Under the pieces are notes generated by a model. That model saw only the letters and a list, made by a program, of their open reading frames with translations. It was not told the origin of the DNA and did not search any database. Positions 9,243 to 63,230 of a stretch of DNA of 64,000 bases are shown one piece after another. The position numbers and the translations under genes were made by a program. Every line of letters begins with the position of its first letter. Position 1 is the stretch's first letter. This DNA comes from an uncultured Chloroflexia bacterium (GTDB lineage: Bacteria; Chloroflexota; Dehalococcoidia; Dehalococcoidales; UBA2162): contig CAVUYC010000027.1 in assembly GCA_963745605.1 (NCBI GenBank), positions 9,190 to 73,189 on the forward strand, in the 5' to 3' direction.

Positions 9243-11013
9243 CTAACGCCAGGCGTCGATGCTGAAGCCGACGCCTTTGCCGCCTCCCAGTCGGTCGCAG
9301 GCAGTCTCCTGCCCGTCGCAGACGATGACATTGTAATCCTGATTCGGATCGTCGCCGCCGGCCGGAACCATGTAGTCGTCAGGCAGTTCTTTCCAGTACT
9401 TTCCCGATCTCTTCTCTTTTCCCGTCCAGCCGTTGGTCAGGATGTCGGACCTGCCCCTCATGCGAAACTCGCTCAGCGGCTCGAAGCTCTTCTTCCACAA
9501 ATACTCGTACACCGCTTCTTTGGTCTTGAAGCCATAGTCATAGAGGTCTTGTGCCATCTGCGGAGGCAGCAGAAGCGTGAAACCGCCGTCTCGGCACGCC
9601 CACATGTCCTTGGTCAGGTAGTCCAGGTAATTGTGAGGACCAGGAATGCCCTTCACCCCGAGGAACCTGGCAATAGCGCCGTGACCGGTCCTCTGCAGAG
9701 AGCGGTATACGCCGGGCATATGCTCCTGCCCCAGACCCCAGTGGCTCGGCATGAAGGTCATCAGAACGCTCTCGTCCTTCTTGAAACCAAGCTCTTCGTT
9801 GAGTCCTTTCCAGCCTGGCGGAAGCCCTTCTGGGTACTCGGCCAGCATAAACCCGCCGTTAGTGATCGGGTTGCCGTAGCTCATACCGACTCCGATGCCC
9901 GTCACGGTCTCCTTGTACCCACCAAGGTTGCGGTTCATCAGGCTGCCAAGCCGTCCCAGATTCTTGTTCGCCGGATTTCCAGGCCCCAGCCTGCCATAGC
10001 TCACGTTCATTCCTATTTCTTTGTAGATAGGTCCACTCACGAGGAAAGCCCCTCCCCATCCACGTCCATCCCCGGTGCCTCCGCCGGACTCAGCCATCGC
10101 CAGAGCTACGGGCAACTGCTCGGGTTTGCACCCTGCCATCACCGCGTTTATAGCCACCTGCTCCACAGTCGCCGTTCGAAACGTCGGCATGAACTGGACC
10201 ACATCGCCCTTCTTCCGGGTGAAGGCATCGGCGATGTTGCCGACTCCTCGCATCTTGATGTCTCGTTGCAGGGTGATCACTTCGTCAGGCTTGTGGCTCG
10301 TCCCTTTCAGCATCGCGGCAACGCGTTCTTCGGTCGGGATGACGATGGGCATGCCATCGGTGTAAACGGCGTAAGGCACGTTGAGGATTCCGGGGATATT
10401 CTCCGTCTGCTGGTAGAACTCCTCAGCCTCTGGCAGGGTGCCTTCGAAGAGAATCCTCGGCTGTTTCGGAGCCCATGTGCCTCCCTGCTTCTCGTCATCA
10501 GTCAGGGGCCGCGTCAGCGCGTCAAGCAAAGGTTGCATCACCAGATTGGCTTCTTCCACCCCGCCAAGGGACTTCCGATCTGCCTCGATAAACCTCAGTT
10601 TGGGGACGCCGTAGACGGTCGAATCGTGCTTGATCTTCTCCGTCTCTTCCGTGTAGCTCAAGAGTACCGTGGGGATTCCACTCTGCTCGAGGTCGGCCAG
10701 ATAAGGCAACTGCCTATTAACTGCGCCGTGTCACCAGCAAATCCCCGAGGATCACCGCGTCGGTCGTCTTCCTCTCCTCGTCGGACAGTTCAAAGGGGGT
10801 GATGAAGTAGGTCTTTTTGATCGTCCAGTTGACGTTGGGATAGTCGCTCTTGAGCCTCTTCTCAAGGGGATGCCAGATATCCTGTTCTCCGCAAATGCTG
10901 AGATGGATGGTCTTTCCATCGAGCTTCTCAAGGCGGGGTGCGAGAGCGTGGAGATCGACCGGGGGCTGATTTCCTACCGGGTTAAGACACTTATATACCC
11001 TGTCTGCTGGCAC
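9243..11013 (-). pseudogene. GrdB-like Sec-module protein, paralog 1: in-frame TGA (10731-10733) plus one frame disruption in a C4/G4 run (10743-10746) as sequenced
   Basis: ORFs 10717..11013 and 9243..10709 join into ...TTDAVILG-ICW-U-HGAVNRQLPYLADLEQSGIPTVLL... if one G of GGGG is skipped and TGA is read as Sec. The result is colinear with paralogs at 47620 and 51316. GTG start at 11013 with AGGAGG 7 nt upstream. Confidence 0.6.
10694..10728 (-). other. Candidate SECIS stem-loop of paralog 1
   Basis: Begins 5 nt after UGA: CGGC(G)CAG-UUA-AU-AGGC-[AGUU]-GCCU-(U)-AU-CUGGCCG. Extended helix with a bulged U and GU in the apical loop. Confidence 0.45.
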
Positions 11014-18732: not shown

Positions 18733-19155
18733 ATGAGCGAGAGCTACGAGAATCCGGGTCGGATCACCATCCTGTTGCATAGCGGATCTTATGATAAAGT
18801 CACGAACGCCATGTCCCTCGCCATCGTCGGCCTGTCGATGGGCATGGAAGTATACGTCATGCTGACGTACGAAGCGTTGCGTCGTTTCGCAAGAGGTTGC
18901 CTGGAAAGCCGATCGGAGACCGATCCGGAACTCATGGATATGATGCAACACGGGGTTGACTCAGGCAAATTTCATTCCATTGAAGAGAAGCTCGATGCCG
19001 CAAAGGATCTGGGGCTTAAGATCTTTGCCTGCACTACCGCAATGTCAACCATCGGCCTGGCGAAGGACGACCTGGTCGCACAAGTCGACGGAATAATGGG
19101 CCTGACGACGTTCGTCAGCCTGGCTAAGGACGCTTCGATCAACTGGTACATCTAA
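18733..19155 (+). CDS. DsrE/DsrF-like sulfur-relay family protein
   Basis: 140 aa. ITILLHSGSYDKV...MEVYVMLTYEAL...KIFACTTAM...TFVSLA layout typical of the DsrE/F fold. Confidence 0.7.
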   Translation: MSESYENPGRITILLHSGSYDKVTNAMSLAIVGLSMGMEVYVMLTYEALRRFARGCLESRSETDPELMDMMQHGVDSGKFHSIEEKLDAAKDLGLKIFACTTAMSTIGLAKDDLVAQVDGIMGLTTFVSLAKDASINWYI

Positions 19156-23660: not shown

Positions 23661-26471
23661 TTGAGACGAAAGCTACTGCCCCATGTTGGCGCGGCATCGA
23701 TCCTGCTGGTTTTGGGATTGCTTGCCGCTTGCACACCTCAACCAGGTGCAGCGGGACCTGCGGGACCTGCGGGACCTGCGGGTCCGGCGGGAACAGCGGG
23801 TGCCGTCGGTGCCGCCGGGCCGCAAGGCGGCGCGGTTAGAATCGCCGATATCCACGGAGCCGCGGTCGTAAAGGCCGAGGACGAATTGCAGGGTGCGCCC
23901 GGCAACCCCAAGTACCTGGCGGATATCCAGGTCACCGCAGTTACTGCCGATGCTTCCGGCGTGGCGAAGGTCACCTTCACGCTCAAACACAACGGGGCCC
24001 CGGTGACGGCGATTCCAGCCGGCACTAGCGTAAGAGTCGGCATGTTCAAACTGGCGCCGAAAGCGAACGGCCAAAGCTACAATAGCTGGGTCTCCTACTA
24101 TTGGACTACGGCTACTGCCGGGACGGCCAACGCATCCAATGTGGCGTGGCCCATGCCGGCGACTTACAAGGTGAGCCAGGCCACCCGCGAGACAGTAGAC
24201 CTCGCGAAATTGGTCAACAATGGCGGGGGCAGCTACTCATATACGTTTGCCCAGAACCTTAGTACAGCGACCATGCCTTCACCGGCAATCAATCCAACAG
24301 GGACGACACCCGTCGGCTACGACCGGGCTGCAACGCACCGCGTGCTGGTCGATTTCGGAGGTCATGCCGGTCCGACGGGAGAAGCCACTCTGGACTTCGT
24401 GCCGAGTGGTTCGGCAGTCTCCCAAACACGGAATATCGTTTTAACCGACACGTGTAAGAAGTGCCACGGTCCTGAATTCGCAGGCCATGGCGGAGATCGC
24501 GTCACCGTAGAGGGTTGCGTGACCTGCCATAGTCCGAACACCACCGATCCTCAGAGCGGCAACACAGTTGAAATGTCCGTCATGATCCATAAGATTCATG
24601 CCGGCAACGAACTGCCGAGCATTCAGGGCCCCGACGGGCAGTACTACGACAATCCGAATACGCCCGTGGACGAGACCAAGGACAACGGCAAACCGTATGC
24701 CATCTGGGGCAATTCCAACTCTTACTTCTCGTGGGAGGGCGTCGCTTTCCCTGCGGTTATCGCAAATTGCGAGGCCTGTCACACCGGAGCCGCCAAAGAT
24801 GCGACCAACTGGAAGACCGTACCCTCCCGTGCGGCTTGCGGTTCCTGCCACGATAACGTGGACTTCAAGACTGGCGCCAACCATTCTCCGTCGAAGCTCG
24901 CCCAGGCAAATGACGACGCCTGCGCCGGATGCCATTCTTCTTCATCCATAGTCGATGCCCACAACTGGACGACGAAGGACGTTAGGAATATCCCGGAATA
25001 CGACGTCACGGTAACTACAGATACTCCGACTCGCGGCTACTACATCAACGGTGAAAAACCCGTGGTCACGATCGTGCTGAAGGACAAGGCCACAGGCGCC
25101 GTTATCGATCACAACACGGTGGTACAAGATCCGGTCGCTGAAGGAAGCTCCGGAAAGAGAGACGGGCTATTCACAGCCGCCAATGTCTACGTTTCAGGAC
25201 CACGGGCGGGAAAGGTCGTCAATCTGACCTATGCAGCACGGGCTGCAGTGCGGACGGCAACAGCAGGGCCCTGGAACCTGAGTGCCGGGGGAAGCCTGGC
25301 GGTGAGAGTGGACTCCGGAATGCCAATGTTGACCTACGATAATGCAAAAGAACAGGGTGGATACGGGGCTGACTTGCTGATCAGCGGCGACATCACAGTC
25401 ACGCTGCCGGCGACCGGTCCAGCCTTGAATGCTCTGTTCGCCAACCCCGCGGCAGCTACGGCCTCAGAGGTTGCAGCGTGGCTGAACGCCGACCCCAACT
25501 TCAGTGAGCGCGCCATTGCTTACATTGACGAGGCGCTGGCAGGCAACGCCAACGCTGGGAAGCTGGCGATCAGGACCCGTGGCGTAGCAAAGACAGACAA
25601 GAATGGCAACGTCACTGAGACTTATGACCAGCGCAGCATTCAGCTCGTGTCCATGCCCGTCGCAGGCATGTTCGCCGCAGCAGACACTGCACCAGCCGCG
25701 ACGTCGTTCAAGACGGCCGGTGGGGCGGATTCACTTCGCAAAATGACTGTCGCAAACGCGACGAACCCGAAGGCCGTCTTCTCAACTGGCAACATCAAAT
25801 ACACCCTGGATCCAGTGGACGACCTTGTCGCGGGAACCTACATTATCAACGTCGAATTCGCCGATGCCGGTCGAGCGCCTGCGCCTGCTAACCCGGCAGA
25901 GCCGCCGTACGTCGACTACGTAACACCATCGGTGGCAGTAGCGACCTTCCAGGTCAAGACCGCGGCCGTGGAAAAGCCGGTAGCGAGCAATTGCACCAGC
26001 TGCCACTGGAGCACCGCCGCGATCGGATTTGTGCTGGACTTCCCTCGCCACGACAAGATCTTCGATGAGAAGGCAACGGACCGGTGCGGAGGGTGCCATG
26101 ATTACCTTTCCGGCCAGAACCCGACAACGACGACCCAACTCAGCTACGCTGGAGCATTGTCGAACCGGGTACATGCGGTACACAACGGAGCGAACCTGCA
26201 GACTCCAACCCTCACGGTTAATCATGAGGAGACCTCTGCCTTCGGCCGCAATTGGGACATCAACTACCCCATGGATATCCGGAACTGCGAATCGTGCCAT
26301 CCCAAGGCAACGACCAGCGGCACATGGATGACCAATCCCAACCGCCTGGCTTGTTCGGGGTGCCATGACACCGATGCAGCCAAGGCTCACATGAAAATCA
26401 ATACCTTCGACCCAACGCCGCTGGCACCGTTTAGCGGGGATGAGGTCGAGTCCTGTAAGTCATGCCACTAA
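23661..26471 (+). CDS. Lipoprotein-type decaheme c-type cytochrome, OmcA/MtrC-like architecture, with a collagen-like Gly-X-Y linker
   Basis: GGAAGGAGG RBS and TTG start. Signal peptide plus lipobox LLAAC (Cys24). Nine G-X-Y triplets. Ten CxxCH motifs arranged 5 + ~330-aa gap + 5: CKKCH, CVTCH, CEACH, CGSCH, CAGCH / CTSCH, CGGCH, CESCH, CSGCH, CKSCH. Confidence 0.85.
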   Translation: MRRKLLPHVGAASILLVLGLLAACTPQPGAAGPAGPAGPAGPAGTAGAVGAAGPQGGAVRIADIHGAAVVKAEDELQGAPGNPKYLADIQVTAVTADASGVAKVTFTLKHNGAPVTAIPAGTSVRVGMFKLAPKANGQSYNSWVSYYWTTATAGTANASNVAWPMPATYKVSQATRETVDLAKLVNNGGGSYSYTFAQNLSTATMPSPAINPTGTTPVGYDRAATHRVLVDFGGHAGPTGEATLDFVPSGSAVSQTRNIVLTDTCKKCHGPEFAGHGGDRVTVEGCVTCHSPNTTDPQSGNTVEMSVMIHKIHAGNELPSIQGPDGQYYDNPNTPVDETKDNGKPYAIWGNSNSYFSWEGVAFPAVIANCEACHTGAAKDATNWKTVPSRAACGSCHDNVDFKTGANHSPSKLAQANDDACAGCHSSSSIVDAHNWTTKDVRNIPEYDVTVTTDTPTRGYYINGEKPVVTIVLKDKATGAVIDHNTVVQDPVAEGSSGKRDGLFTAANVYVSGPRAGKVVNLTYAARAAVRTATAGPWNLSAGGSLAVRVDSGMPMLTYDNAKEQGGYGADLLISGDITVTLPATGPALNALFANPAAATASEVAAWLNADPNFSERAIAYIDEALAGNANAGKLAIRTRGVAKTDKNGNVTETYDQRSIQLVSMPVAGMFAAADTAPAATSFKTAGGADSLRKMTVANATNPKAVFSTGNIKYTLDPVDDLVAGTYIINVEFADAGRAPAPANPAEPPYVDYVTPSVAVATFQVKTAAVEKPVASNCTSCHWSTAAIGFVLDFPRHDKIFDEKATDRCGGCHDYLSGQNPTTTTQLSYAGALSNRVHAVHNGANLQTPTLTVNHEETSAFGRNWDINYPMDIRNCESCHPKATTSGTWMTNPNRLACSGCHDTDAAKAHMKINTFDPTPLAPFSGDEVESCKSCH
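23745..23825 (+). repeat. Coding collagen-like repeat (9 consecutive Gly-X-Y codon triplets; core GGACCTGCG x3)
   Basis: GAAGPAGPAGPAGPAGTAGAVGAAGPQ, directly after the lipobox. Confidence 0.85.
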
Positions 26472-46600: not shown

Positions 46601-47131
46601 TTCTTGCCCCTCCTGCGCTTGCCAGCCGACTCGAGGTCACTTTCTGGAATGAGCGGCAACTGACTTGTAGTATCAGGGACCGTTTCCTCTCCACCAACGA
46701 GGCTGTCGATTTCATGCTTCAAGGCCGTAATGTCGGTGAACTGCCGGTAAACGCTGGCAAAACGGATGTACGCGATATAGTCTAGTCGCTTCAGTCTCTC
46801 CATGACCATGTCACCGATAGCCGAGGTGGGGACCTCGGCTTTTCCTGCAGCAAGGATTTCAGCCTCTATTTCGTCGGCCACCCTGTCAATAGTGCCCGTC
46901 GGAAGCGGACGCTTCTCGCATGCCTTATGTATTCCACTCAGCAGTTTCTCTTTATTGAATTCCTCGCGCCTCTGGTCCTTCTTGATAACGTAGAGTTCTG
47001 CAACCTGCAAGCGCTCGTAAGTGGTAAAACGCTGGCCGCATTGAAGGCATTCGCGTCGACGGCGGATGCCATCGCTGACATCGCGAATCGACAACTTTGG
47101 AATCGAGATACTGACAGTAAGGGCAATTCAT
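46597..47131 (-). pseudogene. nrdR: Transcriptional repressor NrdR, frame-disrupted near 47076-47086 as sequenced
   Basis: Own translation from ATG at 47131: MNCPYCQYLDSKVVDSR (first CxxC of the zinc ribbon). The rest, DVSDGIRRRRECLQCGQRFTTYERL plus the ATP-cone, is ORF 46597..47094 in the next frame. Confidence 0.8.
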
Positions 47132-47191: not shown

Positions 47192-47619
47192 GTGTCAATG
47201 GCTTTTTTGAACAATAACCCAAAAGAACTATGCTCTCGGGAAGACACATTCAACCGGCAGTTCACTCCGAGATCTTCCTGCCTCTTTGGTTTGCGGTCGA
47301 CGCAATGCACCAGGCGCCACCCCTTCCTCCATACCGTCTTCTCAGGCCAGCTTCGGTAGGTTCGTCCGTCGATCCTGCAAGTAGCCGTTAGACAACACTG
47401 CCCAAAATGATAATATGGTCGCGTAATTGGGGAGAGGATGATCAACACACGGCGATGATCCCTGATATCGCTGGGCTTGCTGCTGGATGTCTTGCATGAA
47501 CGGACGCCTACGATGCTTATCGAAATGCATGAGCAGCCGCGAAGTCTTTGTACAGCCTGCAAACGACGACGCCACACGATAGAGGGACTCTCACACTGAT
47601 TGATGGCGACGGAGGGAAC

Positions 47620-49333
47620 ATGGTTGATAAAAAGCAACTACTTACGATACTTGATCCTAGAGGCCAACCCAGCGGCATTTTCGGAATTGCACTGTCGCCG
47701 GAAAACGACATGATGGACTTGTTGGACCCGATGGGCCAGCCGGAGACTACGTTGCAGCTCAAGCATATGGCTGAGCGGCTGCCTACTCTCGACGGCAAAA
47801 CTGTCTATCTGGTAGAGACTGGCTTCGTCGGGGCCAGGGAATTCATGGAAGAGGTACAGGGCTGGTTTACCCGTAACAGGCCGAAGATCAAGACTGTATT
47901 CCGAAGCAAAGGAAATAATACCTTCGCCAATGACCCTGAACTATGGCAGGAGATTAAGAAGAACGGTGACGCCGCAATATTCGGCGTTGGATCATGAGAC
48001 GGGTGTTCGGCGAGTCTCGCCGATTTTGCTCGCAACATGGAGGACTCCGGTATCCCAACGGCTCCTGTTGCCACTGCTCACTTCGCTAACTACATGGCGA
48101 GGGATAGCCAGATACACGGTGTGCCTTTGCGTTTTAGTTTTCCACCCCACCCCACCGCCTGGGTGTCAGCGGGAAACCCACCGGCAGTATGTAGAGGGCG
48201 ACGATCCCGTATCCGGCCAGCCGTTGATGCAGGAGTTGATAGACGCCCTGACCAATCCACTGACGGAGGAGGAAAAACACCCTGTAGCGGTGAAGAGGTC
48301 CCGGAGGCCGCGGCTGTTGACGCCGGACACTGAGGATAATCTGAGACGATTGTTCGTCAAGAATGGTTGGACCGACGGGTTACCGATCATCTTGCCTACA
48401 GAAGAGCGTGTGGCTGAAATGCTTACCGGGACTGACCATGATCCTCAAGAAGTTATGGGGCATATGTCGGTCACGCCGCATGAGGAAAAGCTGGAATATA
48501 CGGTAGAGAAAGTAGCCGTTAACGCGGTCATGGCAGGTGCCCGTCCGGAACACCTTCCGGTGATACTGGCTTTGGCAGCCACGCAGCGGGCACTAATCCC
48601 TAGTTCGACTGGTTCATGGGCTCACATGATTGTTGTTAATGGTCCCATTCGGAATCAGATAGGCATGAACTGTGGCAGCAGTGCTCTGAGCCCGTTTAAC
48701 CTGGCTAACTCGGCTATAGGCAGGACCGGAACGCTCATGAGCATCAATTTTGGTGATATCAATTTTTCTGAGAACTTCACAGGAGGGGCGGGCAACAACT
48801 TCAACTACAACAACCTTTGCTGCGGTGAAAACCAGGAGCGGTCTCCATGGGAACCATTCCATGTGCAAAAAGGATTCAAAGCTGCTGACAGTACGATCAG
48901 TCTCTTTAGAGGCTGGAGCATGCAGGGCTTTAGCGTTGGGCCGGCGAAACGTATGGCAGAGCTTATGGGCAGGATGGGATTCCCAGTCACTTTTATTCTC
49001 GACCCGCTGGTAGCCAAGAACCTGAAGAAGGACGGCTTTGAAACCAAGCAGCAGTTGGGTGAATTCCTGGTCAAAGAAGCAAAAACTAACAGCCCAGCAG
49101 GACGTCCCATGGATGCTTCCGGCATCAACTTCATTGTCGTGGGCGGAGAATGGAACCCGATTTTTATGACGGCCGACTTTGTCTATCTGCAGACCGAACC
49201 CATCGATAAATGGATACCAAAGACAGGCATCAAAACAGATCTGACCTACCGGATGCCAGCCCAGGCCATCTGCAGCGAAGGGATCTGCGGTCTGGATTTG
49301 AATATACCGGATGACGTCGAGGTGAAAAAGTAG
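47620..49333 (+). pseudogene. GrdB-like Sec-module protein, paralog 2: in-frame TGA (47995-47997) plus one frame disruption at GGG 48171-48173 as sequenced
   Basis: GGAGGG RBS before the ATG at 47620. ...DAAIFGVGS-U-DGCSASLADFARNMEDSGIPTAPV...FSFPPHPTAWVS, then (skipping one G) AETHRQYVEGDDPVSGQPLMQELIDALTNPL... This is colinear with the intact paralog 3. Confidence 0.6.
48007..48023 (+). other. Candidate SECIS minihelix of paralog 2
   Basis: U-CGGCG-[AGUCU]-CGCCG-A starting at the 13th nt counted from the U of UGA. The loop contains GUC. Confidence 0.45.
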
Positions 49334-50268
49334 TGGAAAATGTTGCCGGGAAGACGGCTTTTGTCACAGGCGGTGCAAGCGGGATTGGATTGGGAATTGC
49401 CAAGGTGTTCGCCGCTAACGGAATGAAGGTGGTCATCGCCGAATCGCGCCAGAATGCAATTGATGATGCCATGGGCTATTTCAAGCCTAAGGGATTACCT
49501 GTTCACGCTATCAAGCTCGACGTCACTGACCGCCAGGCTTACGCCCGGGCCGCTGACGAAGCTGAAAAAGTGTTCGGCAAGATTCACGTTCTTGTCAACA
49601 ACGCAGGCGTTGGCACCGGTGGCCCACTGCAGACATGCACCTTTAAGGACTGGGACTATGCCATGGGCGTCAACGTGGGTGGAGTCATCAATGGAGTTGT
49701 GATTGTCCTGCCTCGCATCTTGAAACATGGAGAGGGTGGGCACATCGTATCCACTTCTTCAACCGCAGGGATCTTCGCCGTTGGCGGGAGTGGGATATAT
49801 ACCACCACTAAGTTCGCAGTGGCCGGGATGATGGAAGCGCTGGCTACGGACTTGCAGGGTACAGGAGTTGGAGCCTCGGTGCTCTTCCCTGGCCCGGTCA
49901 CGACCAACCTCGGGGTATCGACTCAAGCGAATCGCCCCGAGCATTTGAAGAACGCCGAGCCGCCACCAACCGCGCAGAGTGGTCAACGGCCCGGTTTAAG
50001 AGGAGACGTCTCCACTTTCATGGACCCTGTCGAAATGGGCGAACGCGTCCTGAGAGGAATTAGGCGTAACGACCTCTTCATCAACACCCACCCTGAATTC
50101 AAGGCTGGATACGCCATCAGAAATGAGGCGATTCTGAAGTCAGTCCCGGACGAGCCTGAGAATCAAAAACGCCACGAGACACTTAAGCTGTACGGAACAC
50201 TGCTTTACAACCCGATCTACGAAAAGCAGACAACACCCGGTTTGCTCCAAAGGACAACCAAGGAGTGA
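49333..50268 (+). CDS. Short-chain dehydrogenase/reductase (SDR) family oxidoreductase
   Basis: TGGASGIGLGIA (TGxxxGxG), NNAG, and S...YxxxK (YTTTK). Confidence 0.85.
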   Translation: MENVAGKTAFVTGGASGIGLGIAKVFAANGMKVVIAESRQNAIDDAMGYFKPKGLPVHAIKLDVTDRQAYARAADEAEKVFGKIHVLVNNAGVGTGGPLQTCTFKDWDYAMGVNVGGVINGVVIVLPRILKHGEGGHIVSTSSTAGIFAVGGSGIYTTTKFAVAGMMEALATDLQGTGVGASVLFPGPVTTNLGVSTQANRPEHLKNAEPPPTAQSGQRPGLRGDVSTFMDPVEMGERVLRGIRRNDLFINTHPEFKAGYAIRNEAILKSVPDEPENQKRHETLKLYGTLLYNPIYEKQTTPGLLQRTTKE

Positions 50269-50329
50269 GGAAACCGAGGGGTTTCCAGTCCGATAAGTCA
50301 GTCCGCCGGGCGCGGTTAAGGAGAGAAGA

Positions 50330-51292
50330 TTGAGAGACTTCAAGGGGAAGATTGCCTTCATAACTGGCGGAGGCTCAGGGGCCGGTCTGGGGCAGGCAAA
50401 ACTGTTCTCTGAGGCCGGTTGCAGAGTGGTCATTGCCGACGTACGTCAAGACCACCTGGATGAGGCTAAAGCTTATTTCCGCGAGAGAAAGGCAGAGGTC
50501 CACGCCATCAAGCTCGATATTACGGACCGCAAGGCCTATGCCGCTGCCGCTGATGAGGTGGAGAAGGTATTCGGCAGTCCGCCTCAACTTCTCTTCAACA
50601 CGGCGGGCGTGAATACCTTTGGGCCAGCCGAAGCATCGACTTTCGAAGACTTCGACTGGGTCATGGGCGTCTGTCTCGGCGGCGTAGTAAACGGGATGGT
50701 GACTTTCGTTCCCAGGATGATCAAAGCCGGGAAAGGCGGTCATATCGCCACGGTTTCCTCCTGGGGTGGCTTTATGGGTTTTGCGAACGACGCCCCTTAC
50801 GCCGCGGCAAAGGCTGCCGTGAATAACCTCATGGAGAGCTACTATCTCGCCCTCAAACCCTACGGAATAGGTGTCTCGGTCCTCTGTCCGACGAACATAA
50901 ATTCGAACATAGGCGAAGCAATATACACAAGGCCCAGACAACTTGAAAACACGGGGTACAAGGCCGACGAACAAACGGTCAATTTCTTGAGGTCGATTCA
51001 CGCCCAGGGCATGGACCCGGTGGAGCTCGCGGGCTGGCTTAAGCGAGGGATCGAGAACGATCAGCTTTATGTCCTTCCCTTCGCCAACGCCGACCAGATG
51101 TTGAAGGACAACTTCCAGAGAGTTCTCGACTTTTCCACCCCCGAAGGCAGCCGACGCCAGGACGAACTAACAAAGAAAAGAGCGGAACAGCGAGCGCGCG
51201 GTAATGATCCCTATGCCACGACGGATTCAGGATGGGGCAAAGCAAGGTCGGATTTGACATGGGTCGACCCGGCAGCACGGGCAAAGGGGTAG
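50330..51292 (+). CDS. Short-chain dehydrogenase/reductase (SDR) family oxidoreductase
   Basis: TGGGSGAGLGQA, NTAG, YAAAK. AAGGAG RBS before the TTG start. Confidence 0.85.
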   Translation: MRDFKGKIAFITGGGSGAGLGQAKLFSEAGCRVVIADVRQDHLDEAKAYFRERKAEVHAIKLDITDRKAYAAAADEVEKVFGSPPQLLFNTAGVNTFGPAEASTFEDFDWVMGVCLGGVVNGMVTFVPRMIKAGKGGHIATVSSWGGFMGFANDAPYAAAKAAVNNLMESYYLALKPYGIGVSVLCPTNINSNIGEAIYTRPRQLENTGYKADEQTVNFLRSIHAQGMDPVELAGWLKRGIENDQLYVLPFANADQMLKDNFQRVLDFSTPEGSRRQDELTKKRAEQRARGNDPYATTDSGWGKARSDLTWVDPAARAKG

Positions 51293-51315
51293 GTCGGGGC
51301 AGATGGAGGTAGATA

Positions 51316-53061
51316 GTGGCAATCACCTTGATGGATGACGTAGTTAATCCTCAGCCTCGGACATACGCTGAGAACAAGGGGACTTTTGCTTCCTCAGCCA
51401 TAGCGGTGGAGTCTCTGGCACCTCGCCTGGACACATTGGCAGGGAAGACCGTCTATCTGGTGGATATCGGCTACGGCGGCAGCTACAAATTCATGCAAGC
51501 CGTCGAGCGTTGGTTCAACAAGAATATGCCCTCGGTGACGACAGTACGCAAACGCAAGGCCGGAAGCGCGTTTCGCGATGATTCTCAGGAACTCTGGGAG
51601 GAGATCAAGGCAAAGGGCCACGCGGCCGTTATCGGAGTGGGTGGGTGAATAGGCTGTGTAACAGCGGTCGCTGATTGCAGTATCACTCTCGAGAAAAAAT
51701 ACGGAATCCCGACGGCTCCGTTCACCACCGGCGCCTTCATCTCGGTCGTGCGCGACGACCGGAGGGCTGGGTATATGCCTTTCCTTTTCACCCCCCATCC
51801 TGTGATAGGAATGTCCGACGCACAACTCGATGGATATGTCGTCGGAAACAATCCGGACACTGGCAGACCTGTGATCGAGGACTTGATTGATAACCTCACC
51901 AAACCAGTGGACCCGACGAAACTCAAGTTTCAGGCTGCTCGTGTTGATAGCAACGGAGCCGGAGGATTCCTGAAGGCAGACACAGAAGAGAATATTCAGC
52001 AACTCTTCTACGACAGGGGATGGACGGATGGATTGCCGATCGTCCTCCCCACCGAACAGCGCGTCAAGAAGATGCTCGCCGCAACTTGCGGTCAACCGGA
52101 CGAAGTAGTCGGCGAGATGATGAGGTTCAATATTCGCGGAACAGTCCAGTACACCGTTGCCGATGTGGCGGCCATCGCGGTAATGGCTGGAGCCAAACCG
52201 GAGTACTTCCCAGTCATCCTGGCCACTGCCGCAAGCAAACTGGACCCGATTCAGTCGTCATCCTCCAACTGGTCGGCGATGCTCCTCGTGAACGGCCCCA
52301 TCCGCAATGAAATAGGGATGAACTCTGGGATTGGAGCCCTGTCCCCTATCAACATGGCCAACTCGGTAATCGGGCGAGCCTGGTCACTGATGTCCATCTG
52401 CTGGCTGGACATGCGCCCGAGGGTAAACATGTGGTCATCTCTGGGAAGCAGTCTCAATTACAACAACAACTGCTGTGCCGAGAACGAGGAGGCTAGCGTC
52501 TGGGAACCTTTTCATGTTCAGAAAGGTTTTCGCAAGGACGAGAGCGTAGTGAGCATTTTCAGGGGCTGGGTGTTTGCCAACAGCGCCGGGACTGCCTCCA
52601 GGCGAACGATCGGCGAAGAAATGTGCCTCGAGATGAGCACTATTCCTCCGACCAACGCTAATGCCACCTTCGTCGTTGACCCTGCTATTGCCAGGATGCT
52701 GAAAGAGAAGGACGGGTTTGCCACTAAGCAAGATTTCAGCCGCTGGCTCTCTCAGAACATCAAGATGCCGGCTGGCAGATACTGGGGATATGACCACGTC
52801 GACTGGCTGGTCGCGCCGCAAGCCATCCAGGGAGTGGAGCCGTACTCTACCTTCATGAAAGCCAGGGCTGATGAGCTGATCGCACCATTCCATGATCCCA
52901 ACAAGATCAACATTGTGGTAGTCGGCGGAGACACCAACCCGCTTTGGAAATACTCGGAATTCGGGTATATGCGCAGCGAGTCAGTTGATAGGTGGAGGGC
53001 TGCCAGGTCAGGAGAGGAATGCGCTGACGGCACCTGTGGAATCCCCGACCCGGAAGAATAA
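51316..53061 (+). CDS. GrdB-like Sec-module protein, paralog 3 (intact; selenocysteine at TGA 51646-51648)
   Basis: ORFs 51316..51648 and 51748..53061 are one frame with no other stop: ...HAAVIGVGG-U-IGCVTAVADCSITLEKKYGIPTAPFTTGAFISVVRDDRRAGYMPFLFTPHPVIGMS... GGAGGT RBS before the GTG start. Confidence 0.7.
51658..51678 (+). other. Candidate SECIS minihelix of paralog 3
   Basis: GUAACAGC-[GGUC]-GCUG(A)UUGC starting at the 13th nt from the U of UGA. The GGUC apical loop and single bulge resemble my recollection of the E. coli fdhF minihelix. Confidence 0.5.
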
Positions 53062-53112: not shown

Positions 53113-53167
53113 CCCTTGGTGAGTCTGAGGACGTTTTGTTGTGGGGCGTCCTCAGACTCACCAAGGG
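53113..53167. terminator. Perfect 21-bp inverted repeat between convergent operons (putative bidirectional terminator)
   Basis: CCCTTGGTGAGTCTGAGGACG-13 nt-CGTCCTCAGACTCACCAAGGG. A competing helix TGGGGCGTCC/GGACGCCCCA spans 53142-53174. Confidence 0.5.
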
Positions 53168-53322: not shown

Positions 53323-54129
53323 TTACCGGTCTTGGCGATCCAGAATCGCCGGATTGAACGCATTTGAGGTTGTTCTTCCTATTGCTGCAAAGCGCGGAGG
53401 GCAGACCTCAAAACAGGTCCCGCACTTGATGCACTTGCTCTGATCGATCCAGTGCTTCTGCCCCTTGCCGCCGACAACCGCCTCGGCCGGACATCTCCTC
53501 AAACAGATCATGCAAGCCCTGCATTTGTCCTGATCCACCTGATAGGAAGCCACCGATTCGAACAGGCTGGCTATCTCCTGGTCGGTGTACAGCGCGGCGT
53601 AGTCTTCGATTTTAGCTGGACGCGCCGCCAGCTTGTCCTTCTTCACAATCTTGATATAGGGAACAAGACTCGTGACTGTGTCGAGTTTCGCCTTGATATC
53701 GCTCTCGTCCAGACCCTCGCCGGCTCCGAGGGGTCCGAGCTCCTTCACCTGCCTGACGAAATCCGTGACTGTTTCAGCGAACAGAATGCCGTCTCCCGAA
53801 GACATGAACTCTATCCTGAGGCGGAGCGGATTAAGGCCGACGTACGCCATTATTCTCTTGCAGAGGTTGGCCTTGTTTAGGGCGCTGTAGTTGCCATGGG
53901 TTGTATAGTTGCACTCATCCAGTCTGCAGCCGACGATTAGTAAGCCATCGGCCCCGTCTGAGAAAGCGCGGAGGACGTGGCGCAGGTCAATTCTCCCGGT
54001 ACACATGAACCGGAGAAGTCTGATGTCAGTCGGGTATTGCAGCCTGGAAACTCCAGCGAGGTCGGCAGCGCCGTACCCTCACCAGTGGCAGACGAACCCG
54101 AGAATTTTGGGCTTAAACTCGATTGGCAT
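53323..54129 (-). CDS. mvhD: MvhD-like domain (selenocysteine at TGA 54079-54081) fused to a 2x[4Fe-4S] ferredoxin domain; BamF-like
   Basis: Own translation from ATG at 54129 (AGGAAGCGAGG RBS): MPIEFKPKILGFVCHW-U-GYGAADLAGVSRLQYPTDIRLLRFMCTGRID..., in frame with ORF 53323..54006. C-terminal CRACMICLRRCP and CIKCGTCFEVCP. Confidence 0.8.
54044..54056 (-). other. Weak SECIS candidate for the MvhD-like gene
   Basis: CUGGA-GUU-UCCAG, 22 nt after UGA. Short stem, so low confidence. Confidence 0.25.
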
Positions 54130-58054: not shown

Positions 58055-60013
58055 TTAGTCCCGGAGGATGTCCCTCTTCACGAAGTCGTCAGCCACGTAA
58101 TCCAGGCCGAGGCCGTGCAAAGACTCTTTCGTCGGAATTCCCTCGCCGTTCCACCCCTTGTACCTATAATAGGCGTCTAATAGCTGGGACTCCAACTCGG
58201 GATACCGCCGGCGCCAATGGTCTTCAGGCGGCTTTTCGTCCGCCCGCCTCATCCCACGCCGAATGTTCACCGACCTCACCAGTTGCCGGTTCCGCCTTGC
58301 GACCTGCGTCAGTCCAGCTTCGTCAATATCCATCCCTGTCGCCGCCGAAATCAGCGACGGGTAATTATGTATGTGATAGGGAGGCTTGAGGGGGAACGAC
58401 GACAGCCCGGCACATACCCCGAGCGAATCGTCAATGTAGTGCATTCGCTCCATCCAATCGACCGCTTCGCAACACATCTGGACTGTCGGGTAGTAGGGGT
58501 TGGAGAACTCTCCCCTCGGTTCCCAATCCAGAAAATACTGCTTAAACTTGTCGTCAGGCACCTGGATCCAGTCTTTGACGAACGCTTCTCTCTCTTCACG
58601 GGTAGGAAAAGGCTCCTGGGGGAACTGACCTTCTATCTGAGTGATATTAATCTTCTCGCCCGTGGAATACATCAGGAAATAGATGGGATTGAGCATGCCC
58701 AGCTTGAGAGGCAACTGCTCGTGCTTCTTGATGTTGTTATGGGCAAATTCTTCGGCGCCCTTGCCGATCTGCTTCGCCGCCCAGTAGGTGCCGTTGGCCA
58801 GAATATCTCCGATTCCATCCCGATGCACAATCTTGTCAAGGAGCCAGTAGAAACGTCCCTCGCTATCGGACGGCATTCCAGGCATATCTGAGGACGTCAG
58901 GATGCCGGCCTCGTATAGCTCCAGCGCAAAAGCCATTACCTGCGGCGTCGAGAATCCATCGACCCCGTACTCGGTGGCCAGCTGGGCGATCTTGAAGCCG
59001 AAATCGAGGTCCGAATAGGCCGCCATGGTGTAGGTCAGCTTTGAGTAGCACTTCATCATGTAGGTTGAGATGCCTGGTACCGAGATTGCTGCCCCGCATT
59101 TCATGGGGCAGTTATAGCAACTGAGCAAACGCGTGCGCACATTCTCCTGAGTCTCACGCCATTTCTGCTCGATCTCCGTCGTCCAGAAGTCCTTCCGGCG
59201 GGTTCGCGAATTGCCCCACATGAAGCTGGTGGTGTGCCACTTCTCGTCGAAGAGCTTCATCTCCTGGGGCGAACCCAGGCCGGCCAGAATGGGCATGACA
59301 CCCGGGATCGGGTGTTGCTCTCTCGCCCTTATGTTCTCAAGGACTTCGTTGCAGAGCTTGATGAACTCGGCAGGCCGTGCCACGCTGACATCCATGGTGC
59401 CCCTGACAGCGATGGCCTTCACACCCTTGTCCCCCATCACCGCCCCAATTCCGAGCCGGGAGGCGCTTGATCTTCCCTGTTCTATGGAGGCCATGTAGAC
59501 CCGGTTCTCTCCAGCCAGGCCAATAGACGCTACCTGGGCATACGGCTGGTCAAGTTCCTCGCGGATAAGTTCAGATGTCTCGCCGGCGCCTTTGCCCTTC
59601 AAATGAGAGGCATCACGTATTTCAACCTTGCCATTGTGTATCCAAATATATACAAGCTTAGGGGACTTGCCCCGAAGGACGATCTTGTCAAAGCCGGCGA
59701 ATTTGAGTTCTGGGGCGAAGAACCCTCCCATCATGGAGTAGGCCATGAGCCGGGTCTGGGGAGAGTAGGTGGTGACGATGGTGCGATTCGCACCGACCGC
59801 CGGCGTGCCGCAGAGAAGCCCGGTGCCGAAGATCAGTATGTTATCCGGCGAGAAGGGGTCAGTCGCAGCAGGCACCGTATCCCATAGCAGCTTGGCATTG
59901 GTACCCAACCCGCCTAGGTATAGGCCGGTCTGGGAGAGGTCGGTTACTATCCTTTCGATATTGCCGCTGGAAAGGTCGATTTCGAGGTTAAATCCTGTTT
60001 CAGCGTATCTCAT
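58055..60013 (-). CDS. Tungsten-type aldehyde:ferredoxin oxidoreductase family enzyme, BamB-like (class II benzoyl-CoA reductase catalytic subunit type)
   Basis: I prefer the start at the ATG at 60013, giving MRYAETGFNLEIDLSSGNIERI...YLGGLGTNAKLLWD (653 aa). AOR-family core. Context of Fe-S, HdrA(Sec) and MvhD(Sec) genes. Confidence 0.85.
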   Translation of the reverse strand: MRYAETGFNLEIDLSSGNIERIVTDLSQTGLYLGGLGTNAKLLWDTVPAATDPFSPDNILIFGTGLLCGTPAVGANRTIVTTYSPQTRLMAYSMMGGFFAPELKFAGFDKIVLRGKSPKLVYIWIHNGKVEIRDASHLKGKGAGETSELIREELDQPYAQVASIGLAGENRVYMASIEQGRSSASRLGIGAVMGDKGVKAIAVRGTMDVSVARPAEFIKLCNEVLENIRAREQHPIPGVMPILAGLGSPQEMKLFDEKWHTTSFMWGNSRTRRKDFWTTEIEQKWRETQENVRTRLLSCYNCPMKCGAAISVPGISTYMMKCYSKLTYTMAAYSDLDFGFKIAQLATEYGVDGFSTPQVMAFALELYEAGILTSSDMPGMPSDSEGRFYWLLDKIVHRDGIGDILANGTYWAAKQIGKGAEEFAHNNIKKHEQLPLKLGMLNPIYFLMYSTGEKINITQIEGQFPQEPFPTREEREAFVKDWIQVPDDKFKQYFLDWEPRGEFSNPYYPTVQMCCEAVDWMERMHYIDDSLGVCAGLSSFPLKPPYHIHNYPSLISAATGMDIDEAGLTQVARRNRQLVRSVNIRRGMRRADEKPPEDHWRRRYPELESQLLDAYYRYKGWNGEGIPTKESLHGLGLDYVADDFVKRDILRD

Positions 60014-60467
60014 ATCACGCGGAAAACACTCGGAATGCCACGATGATGAATTGGGTATTGCACTGTTTCTACGACAAGGCTGATCGTGACATATCAGCGT
60101 TCTAAAGTCAATGGAGGGTATCTCTCTGAGTGCATTGTTATTACATTCCGATGTTCGGATAGGATATTCGTCTGGATTCCTGACCACAACGCTTGCCGCA
60201 CGGCAGTTCGCTCAGATTACGAGGGCCAGTGGTCTGCAGCGAGGGGGGAGTTGATACCCGCGGACTTGTTAGTTCACGGTTGAGTCGACGATTGGCCGTA
60301 ATAAGCGCCCCTTCCCAAACAGCTCTCTTCGGCTATTGACCTCCAGTTGGCTTGGCAAGCATGGCAAACCGAAGACGATGGCCGCACGACGTGGATCGAA
60401 GGGATGGGACGAGGGTCTGCGAGCAATCCGCTCAGGACCTCATATTGTCGTTGGTTTCACAGACTAT

Positions 60468-61112: not shown

Positions 61113-63230
61113 TCATATCGTTAGAGCCAGCCTGTAAGGCCCATGAATGTCGGCAATGTACTGGACCTGGACAGACTTGGCGTTCCCTACGAGGTACAGC
61201 CCTTGGACTTTCCCCGCGAGCTCGCGGAAGAGATCGGCGTTGGACTCGTAGTTTGCGGTGATGATGGTATCGGCTTCGACGAATTCTTCCTTGCCGCCGC
61301 AGGTGACTGAAAGTCCGCTCTCAGTGATCTCGTTGTACCGGCATTCCTTCAGTACTTTCACCCCCAGCCTCCGCAATTCCTCAGTGGTGGTGTAGTGATG
61401 GTAGAAGACGTCTGCGATACGGTCCTGGGATGAAACGACGGTCACCTGTCTGCCCACTTGAGTAATCGACATTTTAGCTACATCATCCGGGGAGTGCTGG
61501 GGACTCCATCGAAGAATGTGCATGGCCACGTCCTCTCGAGTGCAGGCCTCCCTCGCCACGAATTGAGCGGTGAAGCTTCCAAGTGCTGCGTAGTCGTGGT
61601 CGGCATCGGCGTCGATGACCACGATTTTGCTTCCGACATCCACCCTTTCAAGCAGGACATCCTCGGCGAAGACGACGTGAGGATGCTTGTCGATCCCCCT
61701 TATGCTGGGGAGGACGGGGCGGGCACCGGTGGCTATGACCACCGCGTCCGGCGCTTCTTTTTCAATTGACCGTTGAGTCACTTCTTGCCCGCACTGGACT
61801 TCCACCCCGAGCTTTTTGAGCTGGTTGGTCAGGTATATCCTCAAGAGATCCATATCGCGGCGGAACGGCGCAAGGCTCTGGACGTAGAGCATGCGGCCCA
61901 GCTGCTTTTCTTTCTCATAGAGCTTGACGCGGTGACCTCGCCGCGACAGAGCTAGAGCCGCCTCCATGCCTGAGAGTCCTCCGCCAACCACAATAACCCT
62001 CTTTGCCTTTTCAACCTTTGTCATCTTCAGGGAGTCTGATAGCTCCTTCGGTTTGTAGAAAGGCGATTCGGGGTTGACAGCGCAGGTGAAGCTGCCCATG
62101 CACCAGACGCACCCGGTGCAGGGAATGATATCGTCCAGGCGGCCCTCCCTTATTTTGTTCGGCCAGTCCGGATCGGCGATGAGTTGCCGGCAGATGCTGA
62201 CAATGTCACAGTCACCGTTTCTCAGCAGCGAAGATGCCAGCCACGGGTTTTGCACCCGGCAAGCGTTCATTACGGTGACCCCTGCGTAGGGAGCTCTCAG
62301 AGAGACGAGGTAGCTCTTGACGGCACGAGCGTACTGCGAATACGCCCCCGGAGGTACGACCATTTGGAGTTGAGGAACCTGAGTCGAAAACCCGGCCTGC
62401 ACTACATCTATGCAATCGACCCCGGCTTTTGCGTACATCGATGCCATCAGCTTTGAGTACTCGATGTCGTAGCCGCCTTCGATATACTCAGTCCCGCTGA
62501 GGCGTATCATGACCGGGAAGTCTGAACCACAGGCTGCCTTGATCCCCCGGATACATTCGAGCGGGAACCGCAATCTCTCATCGACCCCGTCGGAATAGCC
62601 CGGCACCCCGGGGTTCCTAACCTCGGATGTCAGTATGGCTATCAAGCTTTCTCTGGCCCCGGTCAACTGGACTCCGTCAGCACCCGCTTTCTTAGCCCTC
62701 ACCGCCGCAGCCACGTAATTCTCCACCTCTTCTTTCAGGACATCGGGTGTCATGCCGACATCTTTCCAATCAGGCACGATAAGCTCTGTCTCGCCCTCGC
62801 CGCGGATTCCAGCGACCCTGGCCACCCACGGAGCGTGGGTAGAAAGCTGCGGAATAACTTTGGCGTCATATTTGTGGCATGCCTCTATAAGTGTGCTCCA
62901 CCCCGGGATCGTGTCGTCGCTCCATATCGCCTTGGGCGGCCTTCTTTCGCCAGCTGCCTTCTGTAGGGTGCCTGGCGAATCAGGAGTGACAACCACCTCG
63001 CCAACAACAATCATTCCAGCCCCCCCTCGGGCGATGGCCTCATGAAAGGCGACGTGCGTTGGGTGCATTTGGGGATACACCGTGTCAGGAGGAAGCCTTT
63101 GGATCGGGGCCAGTGCTATGCGATTCTTCAGCAACATTTTTCCGATGCGGACAGGCTGCCACAGCTTGTCTAGCATCTCGTGCTGAAACGGGTGTTCAAC
63201 ATGTTGGCTGTCTGCTGGTACTAGTTTCAC
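61113..63230 (-). CDS. Old-Yellow-Enzyme / 2,4-dienoyl-CoA reductase (FadH)-type FMN + [4Fe-4S] + FAD/NAD(P) oxidoreductase
   Basis: 705 aa. N-terminal OYE TIM barrel (LKNRIALAPI...), CTGCVWCMGSFTC cluster motif, then VIVVGGGLSGMEAALAL and VVIATGARP dinucleotide folds. Confidence 0.85.
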   Translation of the reverse strand: MKLVPADSQHVEHPFQHEMLDKLWQPVRIGKMLLKNRIALAPIQRLPPDTVYPQMHPTHVAFHEAIARGGAGMIVVGEVVVTPDSPGTLQKAAGERRPPKAIWSDDTIPGWSTLIEACHKYDAKVIPQLSTHAPWVARVAGIRGEGETELIVPDWKDVGMTPDVLKEEVENYVAAAVRAKKAGADGVQLTGARESLIAILTSEVRNPGVPGYSDGVDERLRFPLECIRGIKAACGSDFPVMIRLSGTEYIEGGYDIEYSKLMASMYAKAGVDCIDVVQAGFSTQVPQLQMVVPPGAYSQYARAVKSYLVSLRAPYAGVTVMNACRVQNPWLASSLLRNGDCDIVSICRQLIADPDWPNKIREGRLDDIIPCTGCVWCMGSFTCAVNPESPFYKPKELSDSLKMTKVEKAKRVIVVGGGLSGMEAALALSRRGHRVKLYEKEKQLGRMLYVQSLAPFRRDMDLLRIYLTNQLKKLGVEVQCGQEVTQRSIEKEAPDAVVIATGARPVLPSIRGIDKHPHVVFAEDVLLERVDVGSKIVVIDADADHDYAALGSFTAQFVAREACTREDVAMHILRWSPQHSPDDVAKMSITQVGRQVTVVSSQDRIADVFYHHYTTTEELRRLGVKVLKECRYNEITESGLSVTCGGKEEFVEADTIITANYESNADLFRELAGKVQGLYLVGNAKSVQVQYIADIHGPYRLALTI

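Follow-up and report, generated by a model that had tools for sequence, protein, structure and literature searches.

UGSC proteins are a family of predicted bacterial selenoproteins (Zhang and Gladyshev; Pfam PF24696, NCBIfam NF041046), canonically of about 150 amino acids (aa) and with selenocysteine (Sec, U) in a literal U-G-S-C motif. They were described in 2007-2008 as selenoproteins without known function (PMC1976440; PMC2398784) and placed among the most abundant selenoprotein families in the Global Ocean Sampling (GOS) data, with 255 Sec-containing and 21 Cys-containing sequences. The 2008 paper (PMC2398784) also reports a domain fusion, 'UGSC/Unknown_1', and proposes a redox role and a thioredoxin-like fold for UGSC. 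Here we analyze a 64,000-nucleotide stretch of DNA from an uncultured Chloroflexia bacterium (assembly GCA_963745605.1, contig CAVUYC010000027.1, positions 9,190 to 73,189), hereafter called the window. In it, two paralogous genes, gene 1 and gene 2, encode UGSC modules fused to a large C-terminal domain and enclose two genes for short-chain dehydrogenases/reductases (SDR1 and SDR2). We refer to the two-domain proteins as UGSC-X.

Two other systems bear on the chemistry of such proteins. In GrdB and PrdB, the substrate-specific B components of glycine/sarcosine/betaine reductase and D-proline reductase, attack by a selenol is followed by Se-S resolution through a nearby Cys. By analogy, the chemistry of the window enzymes is probably similar. 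In the Lig pathway of beta-aryl-ether cleavage, an SDR (LigD/L) forms an alpha-ketone, a thiol nucleophile displaces the neighboring substituent and the resulting adduct is resolved by a second thiol, steps that involve LigE/F and LigG. The likeness to the window lies in the pairing of SDRs with paired thiol-dependent enzymes and is one of analogy only: LigE/F/G are glutathione S-transferases, for which kinship with UGSC-X in sequence or fold is not expected, so that the Lig system serves here as a mechanistic template and nothing else.

Two UGSC selenoprotein genes enclose a pair of dehydrogenase genes

Four plus-strand genes lie between the nrdR/class II ribonucleotide reductase genes, which are divergent on the minus strand and end at 47094, and the MvhD- and HdrA-like genes, which converge on the unit from the minus strand (from 53323). 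Their order is A-type UGSC-X (gene 1), SDR1, SDR2 and B-type UGSC-X (gene 2); the coordinates are collected in Table 1. Gene 1 and SDR1 overlap by 1 nucleotide (nt) at 49333, SDR1 and SDR2 are separated by 61 nt and SDR2 and gene 2 by 23 nt, and all four starts have a ribosome-binding site ahead of them. A single transcript probably spans the four genes and ends at a strong hairpin, which would then act as a bidirectional terminator closing the unit, its probable role. An initial annotation of this stretch had proposed a four-gene operon around a tandem SDR pair. The SDR pair and its spacing are confirmed, and the arrangement recurs in other loci, as described below.

Both dehydrogenases are classical SDRs, with a cofactor motif of the TGxxxGxG type (TGGASGIG in SDR1, TGGGSGAG in SDR2) and a catalytic motif of the YxxxK type (YTTTK and YAAAK, respectively). 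In SDRs, an acidic residue after strand beta-2 generally goes with a preference for NAD. By this rule, the residues found at that position in the two proteins (VVIAE, VVIAD) suggest NAD preference.

Gene 2 starts at GTG 51316, 8 nt downstream of GGAGG, with ATG 51331 as an alternative start. It had been read as a single gene interrupted by TGA, and it does run in one frame from 51316 to 53061 with one in-frame TGA, encoding ...AAVIGVGG-U-IGC-VTAVADCSITLEKKYGIPTAPF...TPHPVIGMS. Gene 1 starts at ATG 47620, which follows a GGAGGG ribosome-binding site. A third, more divergent UGSC-X gene, paralogue 3, is located elsewhere in the window on the minus strand.

Over their N-terminal 150-190 aa, the products of all three paralogues (gene 1 and paralogue 3 in repaired translation) match the Pfam UGSC family, with 82.2, 62.7, and 27.0 bits for gene 1, gene 2, and paralogue 3 and a gathering score of 25. 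The NCBIfam equivalog NF041046 scores 60.2, 47.1, and 20.6 bits in the same order, below its cut-off of 125; the full-length Cys homologue P0247 also stays below that cut-off, at 52.6 bits. The window proteins share with the family the existence of Cys homologues and a bacterial selenocysteine insertion sequence (SECIS) hairpin. The products of gene 1 and gene 2 have Sec in a U-x-x-C motif, but as UDGC and UIGC in place of the literal U-G-S-C, and paralogue 3 reads C-W-U-H-G-A. All three differ from canonical UGSC proteins in carrying a fused C-terminal domain (C-domain) of about 360 aa, so that at 570-590 aa they are not single-domain proteins of the kind covered by the UGSC models (147-172 aa). 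In a comparison set of 80 loci from species-representative genomes, U-x-x-C is present in 79 and the literal GS in none. NCBI and UniRef list full-length Cys counterparts of this two-domain protein as 'UGSC family (seleno)protein'. The view that the module is undescribed is only half right: its N-terminal part belongs to a named family, the two-domain Cys forms have a name already and a fusion, 'UGSC/Unknown_1', which may be the one seen in the window, was reported in 2008, but the large domain is unmodelled in all libraries searched.

Our reading of the locus is that it encodes two paralogous two-domain UGSC selenoenzymes, each with an NAD(P)-dependent SDR of its own as partner and acting by the mechanism proposed in the Discussion. 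We consider this reading as a whole moderately probable. The claims of identity that it contains are held with high confidence, and the mechanistic outline is tentative.

Selenocysteine at the in-frame TGA

The comparison set spans Dehalococcoidales and other Chloroflexota, Acidobacteriota, Thermodesulfobacteriota, Actinomycetota, Alpha-, Beta- and Gammaproteobacteria, Verrucomicrobiota, and Latescibacterota, among others. The codon aligned to the window TGA is TGA in 70 of the 80 loci, TGC or TGT in nine and a Leu codon in one, and the residues on both sides of it are kept, as in GVGH-U-STCAPAV of Chloroflexota versus GVGH-C-STCAPAV of Bradyrhizobium. In the UDGC subclade, TGA also occupies the gene 1 codon in L010, L011, L015, L017, L022, L031, L033, and L037. 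Full-length Cys proteins of about 555 aa are found in the cultured strains Bradyrhizobium sp. USDA 3240, Roseomonas sp. BN140053, Aquamicrobium sp. LC103, and Neorhizobium sp. DT-125. Orthologues with Cys at the TGA position therefore exist, both among the 80 loci and as complete proteins.

Each UGSC-X gene of the locus contains a single UGA about 105-125 codons into the gene. The hairpin that follows 13-32 nt downstream has G(G)U in its loop and thus resembles bacterial SECIS elements in form. Nearly all Sec loci have this hairpin right after the TGA, in one of two forms: a 4-nt loop (GGUC, AGUU or GACC) at nt 21-24, as in gene 2, or a 3-nt GUN loop at nt 20-22, as in gene 1. The stem comprises 4-9 base pairs (bp) in Sec forms versus 0-4 consecutive pairs in the same registers of Cys forms. 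Across 56 Sec sequences, all eight stem pairs vary on both sides (one of them, for example, is CG in 13, AU in 10, GC in 9, and UA in 4), and the covariation score of 0.368 compares with 0.176 +/- 0.018 for shuffled sequences, none of 500 of which reach it, and with at most 0.183 for slid partners. Some of the stem changes are synonymous on both sides, as in CCG ACG GUC GUC GGG versus CCC ACG GUC GUG GGG. Within the gene 1 subclade, 10 orthologues of several phyla show hardly any variation at synonymous sites of the stem, apart from a double compensatory change in L010.

Immediately downstream of the four-gene unit, the window holds two further genes with in-frame TGA codons (Table 1). The HdrA-like gene appears in the list of open reading frames (ORFs) only as the 928-aa part past its TGA. 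The TGA of the MvhD-like gene was recognized because the Pfam FlpD match in the truncated ORF starts at profile position 34. With Sec-type HdrA and MvhD genes next to the unit, the organism almost certainly decodes UGA as Sec. The proposal that the TGA codons of gene 1 and gene 2 encode Sec is thus borne out by the alternation of TGA and Cys codons across the 80 loci, the covarying hairpin, and the Sec-type HdrA and MvhD genes nearby.

Single-base insertions in gene 1 and paralogue 3

Gene 1 had been taken for one gene interrupted only by TGA. Its TGA and the peptide around it are real, but the two ORFs that had been joined (47548..47997 and 47930..49333) are in different frames, and an insertion at 48169 had been overlooked. 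The frame that reads GVGS-U-DGC...PPHPTAWVS continues to a stop at 48333, while the C-terminal domain is encoded in the +1 frame, and the two halves can be joined only by removing one base. An orthologue with 93.4% identity to gene 1 on a metagenome contig of the Joint Genome Institute (L086) is in a single frame; compared with it, the sole indel in window positions 47620-49333 is an extra G at 48169, GTGTCA[G]CGGGAAACC. More distant orthologues likewise read ...PVGWVSRETL... in a single frame.

Paralogue 3 had been listed as a third, divergent copy. It exists, but a surplus base disrupts it too, and the motif around Sec is CxU (C-W-U) and not UxxC. This base lies in a GGGG run at 10746-10743, and after its removal the gene reads DAVILGICW-U-HGAVNRQLPYLADLEQSGIPT, with a hairpin AGGC-AGUU-GCCU past the TGA. 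Its 90%-identity cluster has a member from Chloroflexi bacterium RBG_16_57_8. At least six relatives in this cluster finish with ...AVILGVCW immediately before the TGA, and the intact relatives at two full loci (L087 and L088) read AVILGVCW-U-HGAVNRQL in a single frame. Since the relatives read likewise, we take C-x-U without a resolving Cys to be the genuine motif of paralogue 3.

Compared with close intact relatives, gene 1 and paralogue 3 thus each contain a single extra G, which leaves gene 2 as the only copy that is certainly intact. One explanation is that the insertions are real, that gene 1 and paralogue 3 are pseudogenes and that the module is decaying, with only gene 2 and the SDRs still functional. 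Both insertions stand in the assembled sequence, and close relatives, 93% identical to gene 1 and 90% or more to paralogue 3, are intact. About 30 other genes of the window cover their Pfam domains at full length with no frameshift seen, and it would be unlikely for two random errors to hit one family that occupies about 8% of the window. On the other side, neither gene shows further disabling changes, and both retain the TGA, the SECIS hairpin, and all conserved blocks; furthermore, the related contigs appear to be long-read metagenome assemblies, in which single-base indels are the usual error. On balance, we regard inactivation as a serious possibility that falls somewhat short of being the probable explanation. 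Programmed +1 frameshifting was considered for both genes and rejected, given that close relatives are in a single frame and that neither site has a stop or a slippery context.

The surroundings of paralogue 3 differ between genomes. At L087 (7851-10386) and L088 (2522-5072), its relatives adjoin two convergent HGD-D (2-hydroxyacyl-CoA dehydratase-like) genes, and L087 has an SBP_bac_5 binding-protein gene upstream as well. The neighbors in the window are different, an M42 peptidase gene and a HAD hydrolase gene.

A C-terminal domain outside the known families

The C-domain had been described as fitting no family, and library, PDB, profile, and structure searches gave no significant match for it. 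It has no match in Pfam or NCBIfam, and the same is true of its standalone and duplicated relatives. A profile of the whole-protein family finds no match among PDB chain sequences at E <= 10, and no internal repeats were found in the C-domain. For structure prediction, a full-length AlphaFold2 model was made for the Cys homologue P0247 and a separate model for the window's own C-domain. In the P0247 model (mean per-residue confidence, pLDDT, 85.7; predicted template-modeling score, pTM, 0.85), a strand at residues 100-106 is followed by a helix from residue 111, and Cys-x-x-Cys is placed at the strand/helix junction by residue count in the L013 protein, which is 89% identical to P0247. By this model, the Sec of U-x-x-C is predicted to sit where a beta-strand passes into a helix in an alpha/beta domain of flavodoxin-like fold. 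Foldseek searches of the P0247 model against PDB return matches to the N-domain only (alpha/beta folds of the flavodoxin and lumazine-synthase type), and the model of the window C-domain (pLDDT 83.2, pTM 0.85) has no significant PDB neighbor. Its best Foldseek match, the 'Toblerone-fold' cyclic amide hydrolases, was rejected as not significant (E = 0.14, template-modeling score about 0.2).

Among 1.84 billion cluster representatives, 3594 relatives of the C-domain were found at E <= 1e-3 and 1875 at E <= 1e-10, corresponding to at least 3594 clusters at 50% identity. They occur in four architectures: post-TGA fragments of about 430-475 aa, full-length Cys proteins of about 545-570 aa, standalone domains of 354-375 aa, and tandem duplicates of about 710-740 aa. 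The C-domain is a separate evolutionary module, which also exists on its own (354-363 aa) and in tandem duplication (709 aa). Examples are P0488 and P0500 for the standalone form and P0411 for the tandem duplicate; a further protein, P0502 (1226 aa), combines C-domain, UGSC, and Cu_amine_oxidN1 domains.

In 93 diverse members, the following positions are at least 85% conserved (numbering of gene 2 from ATG 51331): D233, P236, P240, T241, AVMAG..P....P, N321-G-P, N344..IGR349, G372, E384, E386, W391, P393, and G399. Conserved Cys or His residues are absent from the C-domain of these 93 members. Of the sequence blocks that had been highlighted in the initial annotation, WTDGLPIxLPTE, AVNAVMAGAxPE, VNGPIR..IGMN, and AENEE..WEP are family-wide, but the vicinal CC pair (7/80 loci) and the C-terminal Cx4C (15/80) are confined to the UPGC, UDGC, UEGC, and UIGC subclades.

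Conserved gene neighborhoods

The four-gene order of the window is found identically in L001 (a 2-Mb contig), L005 (a metagenome-assembled genome of Dehalococcoidales), and L086. In rearranged loci, two units recur: an A-type UGSC-X gene followed by an SDR1-type gene (L001, L004, L005, L011, L015, L069, and L086) and an SDR2-type gene followed by a B-type UGSC-X gene (L001-L005 and L086). L004 has both pairs in divergent orientation, L011, L015, and L069 have the first pair only, and L002 and L003 have the second. Clustering of flanking ORFs from 86 loci yielded two recurrent real-gene neighbors, namely SDRs (15) and a Pyr_redox_2 protein of about 325 aa that resembles thioredoxin reductase (TrxR; 21). 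The TrxR-like gene is adjacent to UGSC-X in 22 of the 80 genome loci as well as in L083-L085, usually immediately downstream, and with Sec and Cys forms alike; it lies at 9695-10681 in L083 and at 9659-10636 in L084.

These neighborhoods and the conservation of the C-domain bear on a second explanation, in which UGSC is a general thiol/selenol-disulfide oxidoreductase or peroxidase, the C-domain a non-catalytic binding or scaffold domain and the SDR neighborhood coincidental. The redox role and thioredoxin-like fold put forward in the 2008 paper would fit such a function, as would a C-domain without conserved Cys, His or metal motif and a linkage to SDRs within one subclade only. However, conservation of the C-domain is strong and includes invariant polar residues of the active-site kind, the domain is also found standalone and duplicated, and the pairing of A-type with SDR1 and of SDR2 with B-type genes persists in rearranged loci. 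We therefore consider this explanation improbable.

In an Acidobacteriota locus (L050, 11603-12034, minus strand), the N-terminal fragment of a UGSC-X paralogue has a hydrophobic start resembling a signal peptide, which suggests, from the sequence, that some UGSC-X members may be exported.

GrdB, PrdB, and ordinary termination as alternatives

The initial annotation had called gene 1 and gene 2 GrdB-like because the order of motifs around Sec resembles that of GrdB and PrdB. The Pfam GRDB profile (PF07355) finds no match in the window proteins even at E <= 10; they are not members of the GrdB family. For a more sensitive comparison, a PrdB/GrdB-like profile was built from 22 GOS 'proline reductase/GrdB' sequences from Dataset S1 of PMC2398784, which share the motif ...VDxVLLVPx-U-PxCxxxVxxxAxxxExxGIxTV...PPRAxxxxFPxG... 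HHalign aligned the UGSC domain with this profile over 71 columns, bringing the Sec columns into register (probability 94%, E = 1.4e-7). Reversing the columns raised the E-value to 0.14, and masking the Sec/Cys columns gave E = 5.3e-5 in the same register. The alignment with its controls, taken together with the missing GRDB match, indicates that the Sec module is probably a distant homologue of the GrdB/PrdB Sec region that lies outside that family. 'GrdB-like' thus holds for remote profile homology of the Sec region and for the resemblance in motif order, but not for family membership.

That the proteins are true GrdB or PrdB, i.e., substrate-specific B components of glycine/sarcosine/betaine or D-proline reductase, is very unlikely. 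About 70 residues around Sec are remotely homologous and show the same order of strand, UxxC, helix, E..GIPT, and P.G. The rest of the protein is unrelated, though, with the C-domain reaching only 0.1% probability against the PrdB-like profile, and the domain order differs in that the Sec module of the window proteins is N-terminal. Moreover, a motif scan found no GrdA-like CxxU ORF in the window, and the partner genes are SDR or TrxR-like genes and not grdA/C/D/E or prdA.

The weakest alternative, that the TGA codons are ordinary stops ending a 110-125-aa protein ahead of a separately initiated protein of 430-470 aa, has in its favor that gene callers annotate a stop and a separate downstream ORF database-wide, but is very improbable because full-length Cys forms unite both halves in one protein, the Pfam UGSC domain crosses the TGA, conservation is unbroken across it in the 80 loci, the hairpin past it covaries and is lost in Cys forms, and the called downstream ORFs begin at arbitrary codons right behind UxxC.

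Automatic gene calling regularly cuts UGSC-X genes in two at the TGA, and databases therefore hold thousands of truncated halves. Gene 2 has more than 5600 database relatives, the best-scoring of which are cut exactly at the TGA; its best 120 matches all cover just 57-81% of the protein, starting just past UxxC. The N-terminal halves have database entries of their own, most of them 106-111 aa long.

Further features of the window

The window has a G+C content of 56%, which, along with the RBG_16_57_8 member in the cluster of paralogue 3, points to a Chloroflexota genome. An Rfam scan of all 64 kb returned three tRNAs and nothing else. Further redox genes lie at 23661..26471, 58055..60187, 61113..63230, and 18733..19155; these encode an MtrC/MtrF-like multihaem cytochrome, an aldehyde:ferredoxin oxidoreductase, an OYE/Pyr_redox_2 fusion resembling 2,4-dienoyl-CoA reductase, and a DsrE-like protein.

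Table 1. Positions of the UGSC-X genes, their partner genes and associated elements in the window.
Feature	Position	Strand	Remarks
Gene 1, A-type UGSC-X selenoprotein gene	47620..49333	+	about 570 aa if repaired; disrupted as assembled by 1-nt insertion
Gene 1 in-frame TGA, read as Sec (GVGS-U-DGC)	47995..47997	+	UDGC subclade
Gene 1 SECIS-like hairpin	48007..48023	+	UCGGCGA-GUC-UCGCCGA; 7-bp stem; loop 20-22 nt past the U of UGA
Extra G shifting gene 1 to the +1 frame	48169..48169	+	real inactivating mutation or assembly error
SDR1, classical short-chain dehydrogenase/reductase, 311 aa	49333..50268	+	Pfam adh_short 155.8 bits
SDR2, classical short-chain dehydrogenase/reductase, 320 aa	50330..51292	+	Pfam adh_short 134.2 bits
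Gene 2, B-type UGSC-X selenoprotein gene, 581 aa with Sec	51316..53061	+	single frame, intact
Gene 2 in-frame TGA, read as Sec (GVGG-U-IGC)	51646..51648	+	
Gene 2 SECIS-like hairpin	51653..51681	+	inner stem CAGC-GGUC-GCUG; loop 21-24 nt past the U; 6-bp outer stem
Hairpin with 25-bp stem, -47.5 kcal/mol	53113..53167	strand-neutral	between gene 2 and the convergent MvhD-like gene
MvhD/FlpD-like gene with a fused 2x[4Fe-4S] domain	54129..53323	-	TGA 54081-54079, FVCHW-U-GYGAADLAG
HdrA-like gene, about 1030 aa	57255..54163	-	in-frame TGA 57027-57025 at the classical CSM-U position
Paralogue 3, divergent UGSC-X gene, about 589 aa if repaired	11013..9243	-	Pfam UGSC 27.0 bits (repaired)
Paralogue 3 TGA	10733-10731	-	motif DAVILGICW-U-HGA

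Discussion

In the mechanism that we propose for the two UGSC-X proteins, the selenol would be the attacking nucleophile, and the Cys three residues past Sec would resolve the adduct to an Se-S bond. This bond could then be re-reduced by a thioredoxin-type system; a TrxR-like gene adjoins about a quarter of the related loci. The conserved D, T, N, N, R, E, E, and W residues of the C-domain may provide substrate binding and acid/base groups. The SDRs would work on the same small molecule, e.g., by making or removing a carbonyl beside the bond that is reduced.

Several observations weigh against two functional selenoenzyme-SDR pairs of this kind. Gene 1 is frameshifted as assembled, and paralogue 3 reads U-H-G-A, without a resolving Cys. 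No selA, selB, selC or selD gene and no tRNA-Sec is present in the 64-kb window. The module of the window has no adjoining TrxR-like gene, and the linkage to SDRs, being limited to one subclade (15/86 loci), informs little on the chemistry of the whole family. Our literature search found no characterization of any UGSC member, and reviews of 2022 and 2026 still list UGSC as a family of unknown function.

In its most far-reaching form, the proposal would make UGSC-X a large and widespread reductase class, in which a GrdB/PrdB-like UxxC cleaves a bond beside an SDR-made carbonyl without a pyruvoyl cofactor, and whose catalytic domain has no relative in PDB, Pfam or NCBIfam. We regard this extension as a long shot. 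If true, the two pairs of SDR and selenoenzyme would handle two stereoisomers or related substrates, like the Lig beta-etherase pairs.

In environmental data, few predicted selenoproteins of bacteria are as abundant as UGSC proteins, which have been listed as 'function unknown' since 2007-2008. Because Cys versions occur in culturable Bradyrhizobium, Aquamicrobium, Roseomonas, and Neorhizobium, genetics and biochemistry are feasible. With a kinship to GrdB and PrdB, a conserved C-domain, and two recurrent types of partner gene, this locus and its relatives make the gap around UGSC testable.

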